Source: Escherichia phage nepoznato. Taken from it: a stretch of DNA of 64,000 nucleotides. The stretch lies in the sequence record NC_052658.1. One strand, 5' to 3'. The position numbers and the translations under genes are program-made. A model generated the notes under the pieces. The model searched no databases. It was not told the DNA's origin and saw nothing but the letters and a program-made list of their open reading frames with translations. Positions 37,910 through 43,708 of this stretch are shown in pieces; the first letter of the stretch is position 1; the number at the start of each line of letters is the position of its first letter.

Positions 37910-38239
37910 ATGGAAATTACTACAGAACAAGCCCTTATCGACGAGGGTCGTAAAATCTTAGAAAAGCATTTAGGGGAGATTCATAAAACTCCTGGCTATT
38001 TGGGTTGGAGAATTGTTGAAGCTGTAGATTTCCTTCCTCGTAACAGTAAAAGCGTCGAAATGCGATCTCTTTTCTTATTAGTAAAGGTGGATGGGGATAC
38101 ACCTTTTAAAGATGCCGCAGAGCATATTGAAAAAGTTGAAGAGAAAGCTTATGCAGAATTTGCCGATCTTGTTTTAGAACAAGAGATTGAAGGAAAGGTG
38201 AATATTTTTATTTTCTTAGATTTTGAGGAGGATAAGTGA
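37910..38239 (+). CDS. hypothetical protein
   Basis: 109 aa ORF; RBS GGAGGAAGG. Confidence 0.4.
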   Translation: MEITTEQALIDEGRKILEKHLGEIHKTPGYLGWRIVEAVDFLPRNSKSVEMRSLFLLVKVDGDTPFKDAAEHIEKVEEKAYAEFADLVLEQEIEGKVNIFIFLDFEEDK

Positions 38240-38979
38240 TCATACATAGAGAAATTACTGTTAAAAGCGATCAAGATCTTTTTATAATTGGAGATCTACA
38301 CGGTTGTTATAATTTGTATGAAAAAGGAAAGGCAAAGTTAGGTATCCGAGATACAGATGTAGTTGTATCTTTAGGAGATCTTACTGACCGTGGAAAGCAA
38401 AACTTTCGTTGTGTTTTAGAATTTACTCGTAAACACAATCGCTACGCTATTCGTGGAAATCATGAAGACATGATGATTAAAGGTATGCTGGAAGGAGATC
38501 GTAGCTACTTCGAGTGTTGGTATCAAAATGGAGGATATACAGTCCTTGAAGAATGTGGTGAAGAAGGAGCTACAGCCTTAGCAATGATGACAGAAGATTT
38601 ACCTGTTGTTCTCATTGTTAACTACAGAGGCATGAAACTTGCGTTTATTCATGGTGGGTATCCATCTTCTTTGGAATATCTCCCTGTAACAGATATTCCA
38701 GAATACACTTTGAAGATGACAAAAACACAGGAAAACCGTTTTGCTGAAGCACTTATGTGGGACAGAGATATGGTGGACTGTGCTAAAGAGGGAATGAAAC
38801 TTCCTGTTGTGATGGGTGTGGACTATGTGTTTCATGGACACTCTTATGTAAAAACACCTATTATCAATGCGAATCGTGTTTATATGGATACTGGATCTGT
38901 GTTCAATAATAACTTAACATTTGCTTATTTCGATATGGACGGTGGTCTTCAATTTTATTCAACTCTTGAGGAGGATTAA
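38236..38979 (+). CDS. Ser/Thr protein phosphatase (lambda-phosphatase-like metallophosphoesterase)
   Basis: 247 aa; GDLHGCY, GDLTDRG, RGNHE and later HGH motifs. Confidence 0.65.
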   Translation: MIIHREITVKSDQDLFIIGDLHGCYNLYEKGKAKLGIRDTDVVVSLGDLTDRGKQNFRCVLEFTRKHNRYAIRGNHEDMMIKGMLEGDRSYFECWYQNGGYTVLEECGEEGATALAMMTEDLPVVLIVNYRGMKLAFIHGGYPSSLEYLPVTDIPEYTLKMTKTQENRFAEALMWDRDMVDCAKEGMKLPVVMGVDYVFHGHSYVKTPIINANRVYMDTGSVFNNNLTFAYFDMDGGLQFYSTLEED

Positions 38980-39287
38980 TGTATAAGATTACAATTATTC
39001 AAAGTGTAGGTAATATCCGTAAAGAAGTTATCTTAGAAACAGAAGATGTTAATCTTGTTCGTGAGATTGTTTTTAAGGAAGATAACCTGCAAACTGTAGA
39101 ATCGGATGCACCGAATCTTATGGTGGATCAAGAATATTCTGAACTTCGTCGTATTTTTGAAGAGATTCAGAAGAAAGAAACACAACCTACCATAAAACCT
39201 TTTGGTCCTTATGATCCGAGCAATCCTAGCAGTCCTTGGATCATGAGAAATACGGAACCCTATACACCTTTTGAAATTACTTGTTGA
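38979..39287 (+). CDS. hypothetical protein
   Basis: 102 aa ORF. Confidence 0.35.
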   Translation: MYKITIIQSVGNIRKEVILETEDVNLVREIVFKEDNLQTVESDAPNLMVDQEYSELRRIFEEIQKKETQPTIKPFGPYDPSNPSSPWIMRNTEPYTPFEITC

Positions 39288-39294
39288 GGTGATT

Positions 39295-39876
39295 ATGGCA
39301 GAACTGTTCTATACGGGAGTTGGAAGTAGAGACATATCTGAAGAAGAGTGGGCTTTGATGGTAGGCATAGGAAAATGGCTTTCAAACCTTGGGTTTAAAT
39401 TAAGGTCTGGGAAGGCAGAGGGTAGTGATTCTGCTTTTGAAACAGGTGTCCAAGAGTCTGAAAATCCTACTAACAAGGAGATTTATGTTCCTTGGGAAAA
39501 TTTCAAAGGTAATCAGATTCCAGGTGATGTTATTGTTCTTGCAAAACCAGATACAATGAACTATGCTATCTCTGTGCAATGGATCAAAGATGTTCACCCA
39601 GCTTATGAAAAGCTTAAGCAGGGTGCTAGAAAATTGCACCAACGTAATGTGCATCAGGTGTTAGGCAGAGATTTGGAGAATCCTGCTCCATCGTGTTTCT
39701 TGTTGGCTTGTGCTAATACTGATAAACATGGGGATGCAAAAGGTGGAACAGCTACGGCTTGGAAGATAGCTAAAGCCAATAATGTTCCTTGTTTAAACAT
39801 TCGTGGGAAAACAAAACAAGAGATTTACGATTTTCTACGACCTTTGGTAATGAGGGCAATAACAAGTGATTCCTAA
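39295..39876 (+). CDS. DprA/SLOG-like Rossmann-fold protein
   Basis: Track ORF 39271-39876 trimmed to the ATG at 39295 after RBS GAGGTGA; YTGVGSR and LRSGKAEGSDSAFETG resemble the DprA/Smf signature. Confidence 0.4.
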   Translation: MAELFYTGVGSRDISEEEWALMVGIGKWLSNLGFKLRSGKAEGSDSAFETGVQESENPTNKEIYVPWENFKGNQIPGDVIVLAKPDTMNYAISVQWIKDVHPAYEKLKQGARKLHQRNVHQVLGRDLENPAPSCFLLACANTDKHGDAKGGTATAWKIAKANNVPCLNIRGKTKQEIYDFLRPLVMRAITSDS

Positions 39877-40378
39877 ACGTAAACGTGGTGAACAAAGAAC
39901 AAATTTGGCAGAAATCTTAGATTACAACATGGTTAATGATGTGACAAAAGAAATTCTCCCTATTGTAGAAGATATTCTTCGTAGAGGGTTACGATTCTGC
40001 TCGGATCGGGTACATTTCATGTGGACACATAAAAGTGACTCCGCTTTGAATTTCTATCCTTTAGATTATACTCTGAACAATACAGAGATGAAAGATATCA
40101 ACAAATACTTAATGGGATATAAAGATATAACCGAAACTGTTCTTGGAGAATTGGCAGAGATCTTGGCTAATGATATCCTTAGAAATATTAATAAGGCTCT
40201 TGACAGAAGTCCAGCAGGAGTAGTAGTATCTTTTGCTGTGCCAGATATGGTTAAATATGAGTCTACAATACCTAATAAAGCTTATGCCTTTCTTCGGAGA
40301 GACGTTCGTGGAAATGTGTTGGAGATGGAGTCAAACTACAAGATTGAGGAGGTTTTATGGCAGAGTTCGGATCAGTAA
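39866..40378 (+). CDS. hypothetical protein
   Basis: 170 aa ORF. Confidence 0.4.
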   Translation: MIPKRKRGEQRTNLAEILDYNMVNDVTKEILPIVEDILRRGLRFCSDRVHFMWTHKSDSALNFYPLDYTLNNTEMKDINKYLMGYKDITETVLGELAEILANDILRNINKALDRSPAGVVVSFAVPDMVKYESTIPNKAYAFLRRDVRGNVLEMESNYKIEEVLWQSSDQ

Positions 40379-40647
40379 CAAGTTTTGAAAGTAACTTCGT
40401 TACCGCTTGGGAAGCTTGGGATGAAATGGGTGTTGGGGAACTTTATTTTTACAATGTAACACTACGTCCAGAGTATGCTTACCTGGTACCAGAAGGAACA
40501 GTTCAAATTGGCATGTATTTGTCTTCTCAAGACGGTGTTGTTCAATTTGAGTTTTATTCTAACACAACGGACAACGAATTTACATACCGCGCATTTCATG
40601 TCAACATGTCTTTAGGAGAGGAGAAATTTTATGACGACCAAGTTTAA
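40357..40647 (+). CDS. hypothetical protein
   Basis: 96 aa ORF. Confidence 0.35.
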   Translation: MAEFGSVTSFESNFVTAWEAWDEMGVGELYFYNVTLRPEYAYLVPEGTVQIGMYLSSQDGVVQFEFYSNTTDNEFTYRAFHVNMSLGEEKFYDDQV

Positions 40648-40828
40648 AACAGTAGAAGAAGCCGTAAAAGCAGCTTATGAGGCTTTAGCGGAAGCAGAGC
40701 AGTTAGCAGATGAGACTGGTAAAGGTTTCCGTTTCTCCCCTGAATATGGGATGGGTGGTTATTATGATCCAGAAGACGAAAATGAGAACACTGGAACAAA
40801 TTGGCATCCATCTTCTTTAAGTTGTTAA
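40631..40828 (+). CDS. small acidic protein, W-x-S-S-x-x-C C-terminal family member 1
   Basis: 65 aa ending ...TGTNWHPSSLSC. Confidence 0.4.
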   Translation: MTTKFKTVEEAVKAAYEALAEAEQLADETGKGFRFSPEYGMGGYYDPEDENENTGTNWHPSSLSC

Positions 40829-41109
40829 TAGGAGGTAAAGTGGGAATCGAAGATATCAAAGGTTATAAACCGCATACCGATGACAAAATTGGTAAAGTGA
40901 ATGCTATTAAAGATGCTGAAGTTCGATTAGGATTAATCTTTGATGCTCTAATGTCTGAATTGTGGGCTGAACTGGATGATTGTGAAGATTTGGAAGAGTC
41001 TACCAATATATCCACCCGCCTTGACCAAATTTCAATAGCAAAGACTAAGTTGAAAGAAGCTTCTATGTGGGCCTGTCGTTCCGTTTTCCAACCAGAGGAG
41101 AAATACTAA
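40801..41109 (+). CDS. hypothetical protein
   Basis: 102 aa ORF. Confidence 0.35.
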   Translation: MASIFFKLLIGGKVGIEDIKGYKPHTDDKIGKVNAIKDAEVRLGLIFDALMSELWAELDDCEDLEESTNISTRLDQISIAKTKLKEASMWACRSVFQPEEKY

Positions 41110-41327
41110 TGAGTGATCGTAATGTTGAAGAATTAACTGAAAAAGCCCAAGCTATTATGGCTTTAGTGGACGAACTTACAAAAGAAGCTGAAGATGCTGG
41201 TTTTGGTCTTAGTTTAGAAAATGACGCAATCTGTTTTGAAGATTGGCAATCCTCTTCTTGTTATGGTGAAGGTGATGATGGTTTCGTCGTTAATTCTCAA
41301 GGCGTTTGGCACAGTAGTAGCTGTTAA
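41109..41327 (+). CDS. small acidic protein, W-x-S-S-S-C family member 2
   Basis: Track ORF 41067-41327 trimmed to the ATG at 41109 after RBS GGAGAA; contains WQSSSC internally and ends VWHSSSC. Confidence 0.4.
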   Translation: MSDRNVEELTEKAQAIMALVDELTKEAEDAGFGLSLENDAICFEDWQSSSCYGEGDDGFVVNSQGVWHSSSC

Positions 41328-41336
41328 GGAGAGATT

Positions 41337-41609
41337 GTGGAGTCTGAAGGCGAACTGCTGATAAAAAAGAAAGTTAAAGAGATGGAACAAGCACAAAGAA
41401 AGTTTCGTAAGGAGATTGAAGAACTTTGTGAACAGTTTCAGGAACAAGCTTGGATAGGTGACTACGGTAACGGAGAAACTTATTACCCTACAGGAACGCC
41501 AGCCGCAGATCACTATATTGATTTCATTTGTGAAGATTATGGTGTAGAGTTGGATGAAAATGGTTTAACCACAAGAGGTGTTTGGATCTCTTCTTCCTCA
41601 ATGTGTTAG
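41337..41609 (+). CDS. small acidic protein, W-x-S-S-S-x-C family member 3
   Basis: GTG start after RBS AAGGAGAG; ends ...TTRGVWISSSSMC. Confidence 0.4.
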   Translation: MESEGELLIKKKVKEMEQAQRKFRKEIEELCEQFQEQAWIGDYGNGETYYPTGTPAADHYIDFICEDYGVELDENGLTTRGVWISSSSMC

Positions 41610-41619
41610 TAAATAATAA

Positions 41620-41640
41620 CCCGCTTCGGCGGGTTTTTTA
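41620..41640 (+). terminator. intrinsic terminator
   Basis: CCCGC-ttcg-GCGGG followed by TTTTTTA. Confidence 0.65.
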
Positions 41641-41669
41641 TTGACAGAAATCTGGAAGCTTGATAAACT
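41641..41669 (+). promoter_or_regulatory. sigma70-like promoter (TTGACA, 17 bp, TAAACT)
   Basis: ttttttaTTGACAgaaatctggaagcttgaTAAACT, upstream of CDS 41700-42635. Confidence 0.45.
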
Positions 41670-41699
41670 TAACCTATCAACCAATAGAGGAGAAATATT

Positions 41700-42635
41700 A
41701 TGGTGTTAATTGGTAGCCGTGCATTACAAATTCATGCTATGGATATGGGAAAAGACTTGTATCGCCCTTGTGTAGATTTAGATTACCTCTGTACAGAACA
41801 AGAATGGGAAGAATTATCAAAAATGTTCTCTCAAGATGAGTTTGTTGAACTTGTAGAGCGTAAAGGGAACAAGGGCCATGTCAAAATGATAGCTGGTGCA
41901 CATTTGGAATACGATATTGCTTCTCAAGGAGATAGCACAGAAGCTTTGATTAGTTATTGTGAAGACTCTGATGATATTCGTCGAACTTACGCTGGACACG
42001 TTGTTGCTCCTTTAGATGTGCTCTACCTTCTTAAAATGAGTCATCGTTTTAAAAAGGATAGTCCTCACTTCTTTAAAACTATGAAAGATATTCATTTCAT
42101 GCGGTCACTGGGCGCAAAGATCCCAGAAAATCTTAAGAGTATTTATGAGTTGCGTGAGAAAGAAACATACACTTACTCTCATCCAAACTTAAACGTGAGA
42201 AGTAAAGACTTCTTTAAAGGTGATGAGGTTCCGTATGTTTATGATCATGACTCTATTCATGAAGCAATCGCAGTAATGGATGCTCCAGCATATAAATCTT
42301 ATATGAAAGATGGAAGTGAAGTTATGACCAGCAAAGAAAAGTTTTTTGCTCAACCAAAACATGTGCGCCTGTTAGGTGTTTATGAAGAAGCGTGTGTTTT
42401 GGCTTTGGAACGTTCACAAATTCCTTTCGGTGAAGAGATCGGAGGTCCAACCCCTAAGCAAAGTTTTATGATGGCTTTATCTAAAGTTTGCACATCTATC
42501 ACTAGTGGTTGGTTTCGTGAATATGCCTATGAATCCTTCCATGTCGTGATGAAGCTTTATGAAAGTATGGGAGAAGATGATTACATCAAAAGATTCCACG
42601 CTAATAAACACTTACTTAAACCTTTTGAGGAATAG
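41700..42635 (+). CDS. hypothetical protein, possible nucleotidyltransferase fold
   Basis: 311 aa; N-terminal LIGSRALQIHAMDMGKD...CVDLDYL loosely resembles the GS...DxD nucleotidyltransferase signature but spacing is atypical. Confidence 0.3.
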   Translation: MVLIGSRALQIHAMDMGKDLYRPCVDLDYLCTEQEWEELSKMFSQDEFVELVERKGNKGHVKMIAGAHLEYDIASQGDSTEALISYCEDSDDIRRTYAGHVVAPLDVLYLLKMSHRFKKDSPHFFKTMKDIHFMRSLGAKIPENLKSIYELREKETYTYSHPNLNVRSKDFFKGDEVPYVYDHDSIHEAIAVMDAPAYKSYMKDGSEVMTSKEKFFAQPKHVRLLGVYEEACVLALERSQIPFGEEIGGPTPKQSFMMALSKVCTSITSGWFREYAYESFHVVMKLYESMGEDDYIKRFHANKHLLKPFEE

Positions 42636-42636
42636 T

Positions 42637-43308
42637 ATGGGGAGGAAATTAGAAAACCTGTCTGGAATGGTATTCAATGGTATAACAGTTCTTGATGTAG
42701 CAATTAAGGAGACTGGATGATCTACAAAATGGAATTGTATTTGTCATTGCGGTGAGAAGTTTGTTACTACAGCCGAAAGATTAAAATCTGGTAAAACTAA
42801 ATCTTGTGGTTGTGAGCGTTACCATTACAAGTTCATTGAGGATAGATATACATATAATTCCTACAATGCCATGATAGACAGGTGCACCAATGAGAACTCA
42901 CCGAATTATCCTAAGTATGGAGGTAGTGGAGTTTCTGTATGCTGTAGATGGTTAGAGAAGGGGGACTTAGGTTTTTTGAATTTCGTTGAGGATATGGGTA
43001 GTAGACCACAAAACACAACCTTAAACAGAATTAATTCTGCTGATGTTTATAGCAAAGAAACCTGTGAGTGGGCTTCACTCGCAATGCAATCTTATGATCA
43101 AAAACTAAGGAAAGATAATCTATCCGGTATTTGTGGGGTAAAATACAGAAAAGATAGGGGCAAATGGATTGCATACATCCGAGTCAATGGAGAGCATATT
43201 AGTTTATACTATGGTAACAGTAAAGAAGAAGCTATTCGTAAACGGAAGGAGGCAGAGATGTTATATTATGATAGGGCTAAGGTGAAACCTTACGAAGGAG
43301 GTTATTGA
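42637..43308 (+). pseudogene. AP2/HNH-family endonuclease-like gene interrupted by an in-frame TGA
   Basis: ATG at 42637 gives MGRKLENLSGMVFNGITVLDVAIKETG, then TGA at 42718-42720, then the same frame continues STKWNCICHCGEKF...KSGKTKSCGC...YGGSGVSVCCRWL... to the stop at 43308. Confidence 0.4.
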
Positions 43309-43309
43309 T

Positions 43310-43708
43310 ATGGGTTGGTGTGATCAGTCACAAAGTTACTTCAAAGTAACACATGCGGATCTCAACAAAGCAAGAGTGAAGTTGTTGAGTATCGAAAAAG
43401 AAACAGTGGCTATTGACAAACGTCTCCGAGAGAGTAAAGTGGTAATCACTTCTTGGTTTGGACTGAAACGTAAAGTCATGACGCAACGAGAGCATGTAGT
43501 TAAAAATATGCACGGTTGGGCTTGGTTCCACGATATGGCAGAACATTTGGGATACATTTCTCCTGAAGAACATGATCTCTTGGAGTTACGCTACCGCCTT
43601 CCAGATGTAGAAGATTTAGATTTGTGGATCAGTTCAGAACAGATCTTCCTAACAGAAAGTGATTGGCGTAAAGTTATGGCTTGTCTTGAATGGAGGGGTA
43701 ATGAGTAA
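43310..43708 (+). CDS. hypothetical protein
   Basis: 132 aa ORF. Confidence 0.4.
   Translation: MGWCDQSQSYFKVTHADLNKARVKLLSIEKETVAIDKRLRESKVVITSWFGLKRKVMTQREHVVKNMHGWAWFHDMAEHLGYISPEEHDLLELRYRLPDVEDLDLWISSEQIFLTESDWRKVMACLEWRGNE

Follow-up and report, generated by a model that had tools for sequence, protein, structure and literature searches.

Our analysis places three small genes of the window, the whole 64-kb stretch of phage DNA analysed here, in a large, undescribed family of phage proteins with a near-invariant C-terminal signature. Across unrelated large phages, this family is nearly always encoded just upstream of a conserved nucleotidyltransferase (NTase). The near-constant upstream linkage in unrelated phages suggests that the small proteins and the NTase probably work together.

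The window belongs to a phAPEC8-like Phapecoctavirus, and its segment from 39800 to 42700 is 97% identical to many such phages. An earlier note had pointed to three near-adjacent small acidic proteins at 40631-41609, sharing a Ser-rich tail that ends in Cys. The ORFs are indeed present, with acidic pI values and the reported endings (Table 1), as part of four consecutive genes on the plus strand: paralog A, an unrelated gene, and paralogs B and C. "Near-adjacent" is the right wording, A being separated from B by the unrelated ORF. The ATG of paralog B overlaps the stop codon of this preceding gene, and a Shine-Dalgarno-like purine run is found upstream of each of A, B and C. The NTase gene follows in the same direction, 91 nt past C. 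The hairpin at the end of the array is also annotated as a terminator in phAPEC8, and the promoter match that comes after it precedes the NTase gene.

Table 1. Features of the small-gene array and the adjoining NTase gene (window coordinates)
Feature	Coordinates	Strand	Description	phAPEC8 counterpart
Paralog A	40631..40828	+	65 aa, pI 4.31, ends GTNWHPSSLSC	gp188
Acb2 / T4 Vs.4 homolog	40840..41109	+	89 aa; between A and B, not a family member	gp189
Paralog B	41109..41327	+	72 aa, pI 4.05, ends GVWHSSSC	gp190
Paralog C	41337..41609	+	90 aa, pI 4.40, GTG start, ends GVWISSSSMC	gp191
Intrinsic-terminator-like hairpin	41618..41635	+	AACCCGCTTCGGCGGGTT then T run; end of small-gene array	
Sigma-70-like promoter match	41641..41669	+	TTGACA, 17 nt, TAAACT, TG extension; consensus match only	
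NTase gene	41700..42635	+	311 aa, Pfam DUF7277 + DUF7275	

The window contains 620 ORFs of 30 aa or more, and A, B and C alone match the family HMM or a regular expression for the tail, so that chance does not account for the pattern. The paralogy proposed in the earlier note is borne out, as all three match PHROG 899 at the C-terminal end of the profile (E 1.2e-12 for A, 1.4e-5 for B and 5.1e-14 for C) and are 33-37% identical to one another in aligned columns. The family HMM recognises A best (E 3e-25), then C (9e-18), and B most weakly (3e-7). Each paralog represents a subtype of its own. Paralog A is of the "YGMGG" subtype, the commonest in the family, with the tail W-H-P-S-S-L-S-C and the terminal Cys as its sole Cys. 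Paralog B is of a "double-motif" subtype, also encoded in four other loci (L005, L046, L074 and L080); the internal WQSSSC reported for it is present as D-W-Q-S-S-S-C and runs straight into Y-G-E-G, while its tail, W-H-S-S-S-C, is two residues short of the consensus. Paralog C, with the tail W-I-S-S-S-S-M-C, is of a "DYGNGETYYP" subtype with a helical insert, and has orthologs in PEi20, Entb_45, Mosigvirus and other T4-like phages. The three subtypes are each found across different phage families, suggesting that the paralogs are old and have individually maintained functions, rather than being recent duplicates. We found no direct or inverted DNA repeats in 40600-41650, which rules out a DNA repeat as the origin of the shared tail. 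The tail Ser codons also differ between the copies (TCT TCT in A, AGT AGT AGC in B and TCT TCT TCC TCA in C) and draw on both Ser codon families. The similarity of A, B and C is therefore upheld at the protein level.

The family profile, searched against 1.84 billion cluster representatives at the 50% identity level (threshold E<=1e-3), retrieved 479 representatives, and almost all of the alignments extend to the final residue of the protein. Among the best 148 of these 479, 142 carry the terminal Cys; within these 142 Cys-ending representatives, Trp occupies position -8 in 140, and Ser occupies position -5 in all 142 and position -4 in 141. In the same best 148, position -6 is Ser, Pro or Ala, the terminal Cys is the sole Cys in 91 proteins, a YGMGG motif lies upstream of the tail in 123 (YGxG in 137), and the median length and pI are 86 aa and 4.5. 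The resulting C-terminal register, W(-8)-x-[S/P/A](-6)-S(-5)-S(-4)-x-x-C(-1)-COOH, is exact in A and C. The earlier note had made its claim depend on recurrence of the motif in homologues from related phages. The motif recurs even in these distant representatives, and the conserved tail is a selected feature of the family. Conservation goes beyond the terminal peptide and covers a whole core of about 45 residues. The consensus begins with an amphipathic helix ending ..EAE.IADE.G..F.F, followed by YGMGG.YYP, and goes on with a variable acidic linker rich in Trp and Ser, followed by G-W-x-S-S-S-x-x-C-COOH. The YGxG motif reads YGMGG in A, YGEG in B and YGNG in C, with the Y and G invariant in one alignment of the family.

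A word-indexed search found orthologs with the same ending in Phapecoctavirus-like contigs and in T4-like phages (PEi20, Entb_45), and by tblastn it was located in large virulent phages, numbering in the hundreds, that infect Escherichia, Klebsiella, Enterobacter, Aeromonas, Acinetobacter, Pseudomonas, Ralstonia, Erwinia and Providencia. A typical member had no tblastn match in 72,556 plasmids, so the proteins are not a plasmid anti-restriction family. The earlier note knew of no described phage family with this tail, and our searches agree with it. A, B and C matched no family in Pfam, NCBIfam or PADLOC and no PDB chain at E<=10, and ten typical family members gave nothing in a Pfam scan; we dismissed the matches of A, B and C to peroxiredoxin (E 0.04), collagen NC1 (E 0.017), Snapin (E 0.04) and ZorB (E 0.022) as noise. 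The literature searched contained no mention of DUF7275, PF23940, PHROG 899 or PHROG 2141, and no description of the motif, of the small-protein family or of a module pairing it with an NTase. The family and its fold are without known relatives.

An AlphaFold2 model of paralog C, built from a 14-sequence alignment, has a mean pLDDT of 94. It contains a helix at residues 4-34, in line with the helical N-terminal part suggested in the earlier note, two strands (38-40 and 47-50) on either side of the YGNG turn, and two short helices. The tail forms a strand at 82-85 (VWIS) and a helical turn at 86-89, the whole block having a pLDDT of 87. In the model, the tail strand with its Trp pairs with the conserved YG-x-G hairpin, and the Ser residues open the terminal helical turn. 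The tail is therefore predicted to close a compact mini-domain as its last strand and cap, abutting the hairpin, and to be a final structural element and not a free peptide. The sequence of B points the same way: the direct continuation of its internal motif into Y-G-E-G implies that tail and hairpin are spatial neighbours.

The earlier note suggested that the tail is a shared modification, binding or processing site. A processing site could mean a RiPP-like core, in which Ser and Cys are converted to lanthionine or azoles, or a tail that is cleaved off. A Ser-rich, Cys-terminated tail does superficially resemble lanthipeptide or thiazole/oxazole cores. However, a tail predicted with high confidence to be folded argues against processing of the leader/core type, and the conservation of the whole core, not of the terminal peptide alone, does likewise. 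Moreover, Pfam identified no LanB/C/M, YcaO, radical-SAM or protease family in 38236-39284, 39295-40644 or 41700-43705, and no modifying-enzyme family is among the 25 most widely shared clusters of 80 related loci. We therefore regard processing as very improbable. The same model lends itself to another interpretation, namely that the motif is purely structural, with small residues and Trp closing a miniature fold whose function has nothing to do with the tail. The pairing of the Trp strand with the hairpin, the placement of the Ser residues and the tail-hairpin proximity implied by B would all fit. Nevertheless, as a general rule, a cytoplasmic protein rarely keeps a lone, invariant Cys at its C-terminus for structural reasons only, and the most conserved surface of a fast-evolving phage protein is usually a functional site; a purely structural motif thus seems quite unlikely. 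Instead, we infer that the invariant surface formed by YGxG and W-SSS-C is a functional site. Among the three options of the earlier note, a binding site appears the most plausible, with the NTase as the likely partner.

Gene linkage speaks for this partner. Starting from the 311-aa protein, we collected 80 IMG/VR loci. The family HMM matches at least one ORF in 68 of them, and seven more encode divergent ORFs with a W..SS.C tail just upstream of the NTase, bringing the total to 75 of 80; the other five (L010-12, L024 and L065) have no detectable family member. The loci contain one to six family copies each. Of the 141 family ORFs, 137 lie upstream and four downstream of the NTase, and none is on the opposite strand. 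When all ORFs of the 80 loci were clustered against one another, the small family was the sole cluster besides the NTase that is common across lineages. The reverse approach gave the same picture, as the NTase is located directly downstream in all nine GenBank loci that were found via the small proteins (Phapecoctavirus, Mosigvirus, Acinetobacter Hadassahvirus, Acinetobacter AB1I1T, Pseudomonas Otagovirus, Ralstonia RSP15, Ralstonia RsoM2USA, Erwinia Kaldavass and Providencia PSTCR6). These nine include Acinetobacter phage AB-Navy71 and Pseudomonas phage PN09, as well as Mosigvirus Shf125875, in which three tandem family members precede an NTase homolog (43% identity) by about 0.3-1.1 kb. We looked for fusions of a small family member with the NTase in 120 NTase homologs and in the long members of the family, and found none.

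Two observations on individual phages may be added. In Providencia PSTCR6, the NTase homolog spans the junction of the record, and is unannotated for that reason. In T4-like phages, the array occupies a variable region beside nudE and e, and one or two unrelated small ORFs lie between the array and the NTase. These intervening ORFs, together with the terminator and the promoter-like site after C, indicate that the genes are not a tight bicistronic toxin-antitoxin pair.

The NTase has 2201 homologs in a large database and occurs in 733 GenBank phage records. A search of 185,579 bacterial and archaeal species genomes found the NTase in four MAG contigs only, three of which also contain family members, and the module formed by the small proteins and the NTase is phage-exclusive. 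An alignment of 32 homologs at 51-80% identity revealed invariant columns that include G5 S6, D26 x D28, E70, K112, S114, H115 and R116, with D130 conserved in at least 90%. Judged from the alignment, these columns represent the Pol-beta nucleotidyltransferase signature and a conserved motif of the helical domain. The AlphaFold model of the NTase has a pLDDT of 88.8, with low confidence in the invariant-rich loop 160-174. In a fold comparison, its closest resemblance is to the MenT toxins; the scores were 11.4 for MenT1, 10.0 for TglT/MenT3, 9.3 for ANT(2''), 8.7 for MenT4, 8.4 for LnuA and 8.2 for a JHP933-like protein. The 311-aa protein is thus predicted to adopt a MenT/AbiEii-type NTase fold. 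Searches of the PDB by sequence, and then by alignment profile, gave no significant match, and the relationship to MenT is accordingly at the fold level only.

More distant NTase homologs, in Streptomyces, Gordonia, Vibrio and Alteromonas phages, are without the Cys-tailed family. Beside their genes we found a different small beta-rich domain with the motif GGGEG.G...YF.K.GYYSSW...EV.P., which is absent from all of the closer NTase loci. Alteromonas phage PT11-V22 carries this second domain as a C-terminal fusion to the NTase. The complementary distribution and the PT11-V22 fusion suggest that the NTase acts, as a rule, together with a small protein.

The unrelated gene within the array provides a different perspective. 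Its product matches Pfam PF24729 (Acb2/Tad1 hairpin; E 1.2e-19) and, over residues 3-89, PDB entry 7UQ2 "Vs.4" (E 1.6e-42), and by sequence it is an Acb2/T4 Vs.4-type anti-CBASS cyclic-oligonucleotide sponge. It marks the region as receptive to counter-defence cargo. The paralogs might then be free-standing counter-defence or host-takeover proteins, such as immune-signal sponges or inhibitors of host enzymes, that share the region with the NTase and make no contact with it. A sponge gene within the array and the variable region that houses the array in T4-like phages are compatible with this possibility. The paralogs are small, acidic, tandem and diversified, like many anti-defence proteins, and a nucleotide pocket could be made up of the conserved Trp, the loop rich in Gly and the cluster of Ser residues. 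The Acb2/T4 Vs.4 and Tad1 sponges are themselves small acidic phage proteins, like A, B and C. However, A, B and C match neither PF24729 nor the solved Acb2/Tad1 structures, which the intervening ORF alone does, and resemble no solved sponge or other PDB entry in sequence or fold. The related contig L006 has A, B and C next to one another and lacks the Acb2 gene between them, which suggests that this gene was inserted into the array and stands outside the module. Mere co-location also leaves unexplained a co-occurrence of about 94%, with fixed orientation and order, in at least five unrelated phage lineages. We consider independent counter-defence functions rather unlikely on this evidence.

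We infer instead that the products of the small-protein and NTase genes act together, and that the small proteins physically bind the enzyme. Our working model begins with A, B and C as three anciently diverged paralogs of a phage-specific family, whose members are predicted to start with an acidic amphipathic helix, to continue with a beta-hairpin that bears the YG-x-G motif and with an acidic linker of variable sequence, and to finish in a strand and turn that carry the tail. The invariant hairpin and tail would form one conserved surface that docks on the NTase. The acidic helix might then lie in the nucleic-acid groove of the enzyme, with the Trp/Ser/terminal-Cys carboxylate end inside its active site, and the NTase would be held in check, or its specificity set, during infection. 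In this form the proteins would be antitoxin-like inhibitors or pseudosubstrates, which we tentatively favour, while granting it somewhat less than an even chance. The choice of inhibition over modification is speculative.

Alternatively, the small proteins might serve the NTase as acceptors or carriers and be nucleotidylylated by it on an invariant Ser hydroxyl or on the thiol or carboxylate of the terminal Cys. The functional species would be the protein-nucleotide conjugate, serving as a decoy, primer or regulator. With the absolutely conserved Ser-Ser and the lone terminal Cys, the tail suggests chemistry, in the role of acceptor or ligand, rather than a steric plug. In MntA-HepT and GlnE/GlnD, a Pol-beta NTase acts on a neighbouring protein, which sets a precedent. 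On the other hand, the tail is modelled as packed in the fold and not exposed, and the target of the known protein-modifying Pol-beta NTases (GlnE, GlnD and MntA) is, to our knowledge, Tyr, not Ser or Cys. We consider an acceptor role rather unlikely. A bolder version holds that nucleotide transfer to the invariant Ser-Ser(-Ser)-x-x-Cys end would yield protein-nucleotide or protein-primed oligonucleotide conjugates as a new class of effector or decoy, with the paralogs as distinct carriers and the small domains of the distant clade as alternative ones. This version is less probable again, and overall we see new chemistry as a minority possibility.

Should the coupling be real, the small proteins and the NTase would constitute a widespread and apparently undescribed module of two components, found exclusively in large virulent phages. 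A phage-owned NTase with miniproteins of its own could be a leashed phage weapon, a counter to host defences that target tRNA, or a source of new protein-nucleotide chemistry. The W-x-S-S-S-x-x-Cys-COOH signature offers a handle for mutagenesis and mass spectrometry, as well as a simple tag by which hundreds of phage genes now called "hypothetical" could be annotated.

Several known systems invite comparison. Among nucleotidyltransferases, the aminoglycoside and lincosamide enzymes act on small-molecule hydroxyls and MntA acts on HepT, much as the phage NTase would on the small proteins in the acceptor model. The small proteins described here are, however, without a HEPN Rx4-6H domain. The RlaP and CCA-adding NTases of phage RNA-repair modules, likewise phage-encoded and of the Pol-beta type, act on the ends of RNA (PMC7824862). 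RNA ligase or PNK genes lie close to the module in RSP15, in Kaldavass and in Blueeyedbeauty. However, few loci have RNA ligase, PNK or tRNA genes nearby, and such an RNA-repair context is not conserved around the NTase across lineages; we rejected it as an explanation. The phage NTase has no Pfam match to RlaP or to CCA enzymes, and those enzymes are without a small Cys-tailed partner.

In bacteria, the MenT/AbiEii-type NTases are known as toxins that inactivate tRNAs during abortive infection, and the MenT toxins add nucleotides to tRNA 3' ends. AbiE and MenA3/MenT3 are bacterial defence or toxin-antitoxin modules, whereas the Cys-tailed module consists of phage genes. The AbiEi/MenA3 antitoxins are proteins of about 200-300 aa with wHTH and kinase-like domains (COG5340), and none such is encoded here; A, B and C show no detectable homology to MenA1 or to the COG5340 (AbiEi/MenA3/MenA4) antitoxins. 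The M. tuberculosis pair MenA1-MenT1 (Rv0078B/Rv0078A) likewise combines an NTase with a small protein encoded upstream, a parallel that speaks for the inhibitor model. MenT1 is neutralised by MenA1, a helical protein of 68 aa whose gene is usually just upstream (15 of 21 menA1 genes) and whose C-terminus is dispensable (PMC10435456). In the Cys-tailed family, the C-terminus is by contrast the invariant part, which makes the analogy with MenA1 a loose one, and A, B and C have no sequence similarity to MenA1, the PDB search at E<=10 included. The enzymes differ as well, the phage NTase being recognised by Pfam as DUF7277/DUF7275, not as DUF1814, and having about 130 additional C-terminal helical residues. 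Finally, unlike MenA1-MenT1, the phage module supplies one to six paralogs per enzyme and resides only in virulent large phages, not in bacterial chromosomes.

In the model of the NTase (the DUF7277 + DUF7275 protein, 41700-42635), residues 160-174 constitute the sole low-confidence stretch (pLDDT < 50). This loop contains several invariant residues, H161, P162, L164, F171 and F172, and is a candidate for a segment that would become ordered upon substrate or partner binding. Distant DUF7275 NTase homologs were found in Streptomyces, Gordonia, Vibrio and Alteromonas phages, and beside them lies a different small β-rich domain, with the motif GGGEG.G..Y.VF...G.YF.K.GYYSSW....EV.P.E..V..Y, which matched no Pfam family. 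The NTase of Alteromonas phage PT11-V22 carries this second small domain as a C-terminal fusion. The domain appears to represent an alternative family of NTase partners. The NTase homolog of Providencia phage PSTCR6 (MW057858.1; 48% identity, E 1e-89) straddles the artificial point at which the two ends of the circular record meet (L091 and L094, the record end and start), and for this reason is unannotated in GenBank.

Coordinates of the genes and domains discussed, in the window and in compared phage loci (L numbers)
Feature	Location	Strand	Remarks
Calcineurin-like (NinI-type) phosphoesterase	window 38236-38979	+	upstream neighbour
DprA-like protein	window 39271-39876	+	upstream neighbour; PHROG 768
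Vs.4/Acb2 homolog, 89 aa	window 40840-41109	+	PF24729 E 1.2e-19; PDB 7UQ2 E 1.6e-42
145-aa ORF	window 42871-43308	+	weak, sub-threshold AP2-domain match, E 0.002
NinI-like phosphatase	L092 8606-9385		Erwinia phage Kaldavass
RNA-repair/tRNA-type neighbours	L005 4444-5004, 6812-7834		
RNA-repair/tRNA-type neighbours	L086 1824-2483		
RNA-repair/tRNA-type neighbours	L087 6113-6655		
RNA-repair/tRNA-type neighbours	L092 1-995, 1710-2636		
Second small domain	L086 4582-4920, 4963-5280		
Second small domain	L087 4618-4980, 4977-5438		
Second small domain	L088 3543-3839		
Second small domain	L089 protein 4001-5152		residues ~320-383

In some lineages, the module of Cys-tailed small-protein genes and NTase gene has genes for RNA repair or tRNAs beside it (RNA ligase, polynucleotide kinase, a tRNA cluster); across the 80 loci compared, this association is not conserved. 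A neighbour in RSP15 is annotated as a 'phosphatase', and its sequence, judged by eye only, looks macro-domain-like. Like the window, with its NinI-type phosphoesterase upstream, Erwinia phage Kaldavass has a NinI-like phosphatase, there downstream of the module.

Downstream in the window, the 145-aa ORF is situated where most phAPEC8-like genomes lose megablast coverage (~42630), and phAPEC8 itself has no CDS annotated at this position. The ORF is possibly a homing-endonuclease remnant or an insertion. Separately, the record MG065650.1 ('Campylobacter phage B15') gives Campylobacter jejuni as the host of the phage. Its sequence shares 98% identity with the E. coli Phapecoctavirus region analysed here, and the host label is probably wrong.

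The array itself harbors a further gene, between the paralogous small acidic proteins A and B, which is labelled only 'hypothetical protein' in phAPEC8-like records and is absent from the array of the related contig L006. Pfam and PDB matches identify its product as a close homolog of T4 Vs.4/Acb2, the anti-CBASS cyclic-oligonucleotide sponge.
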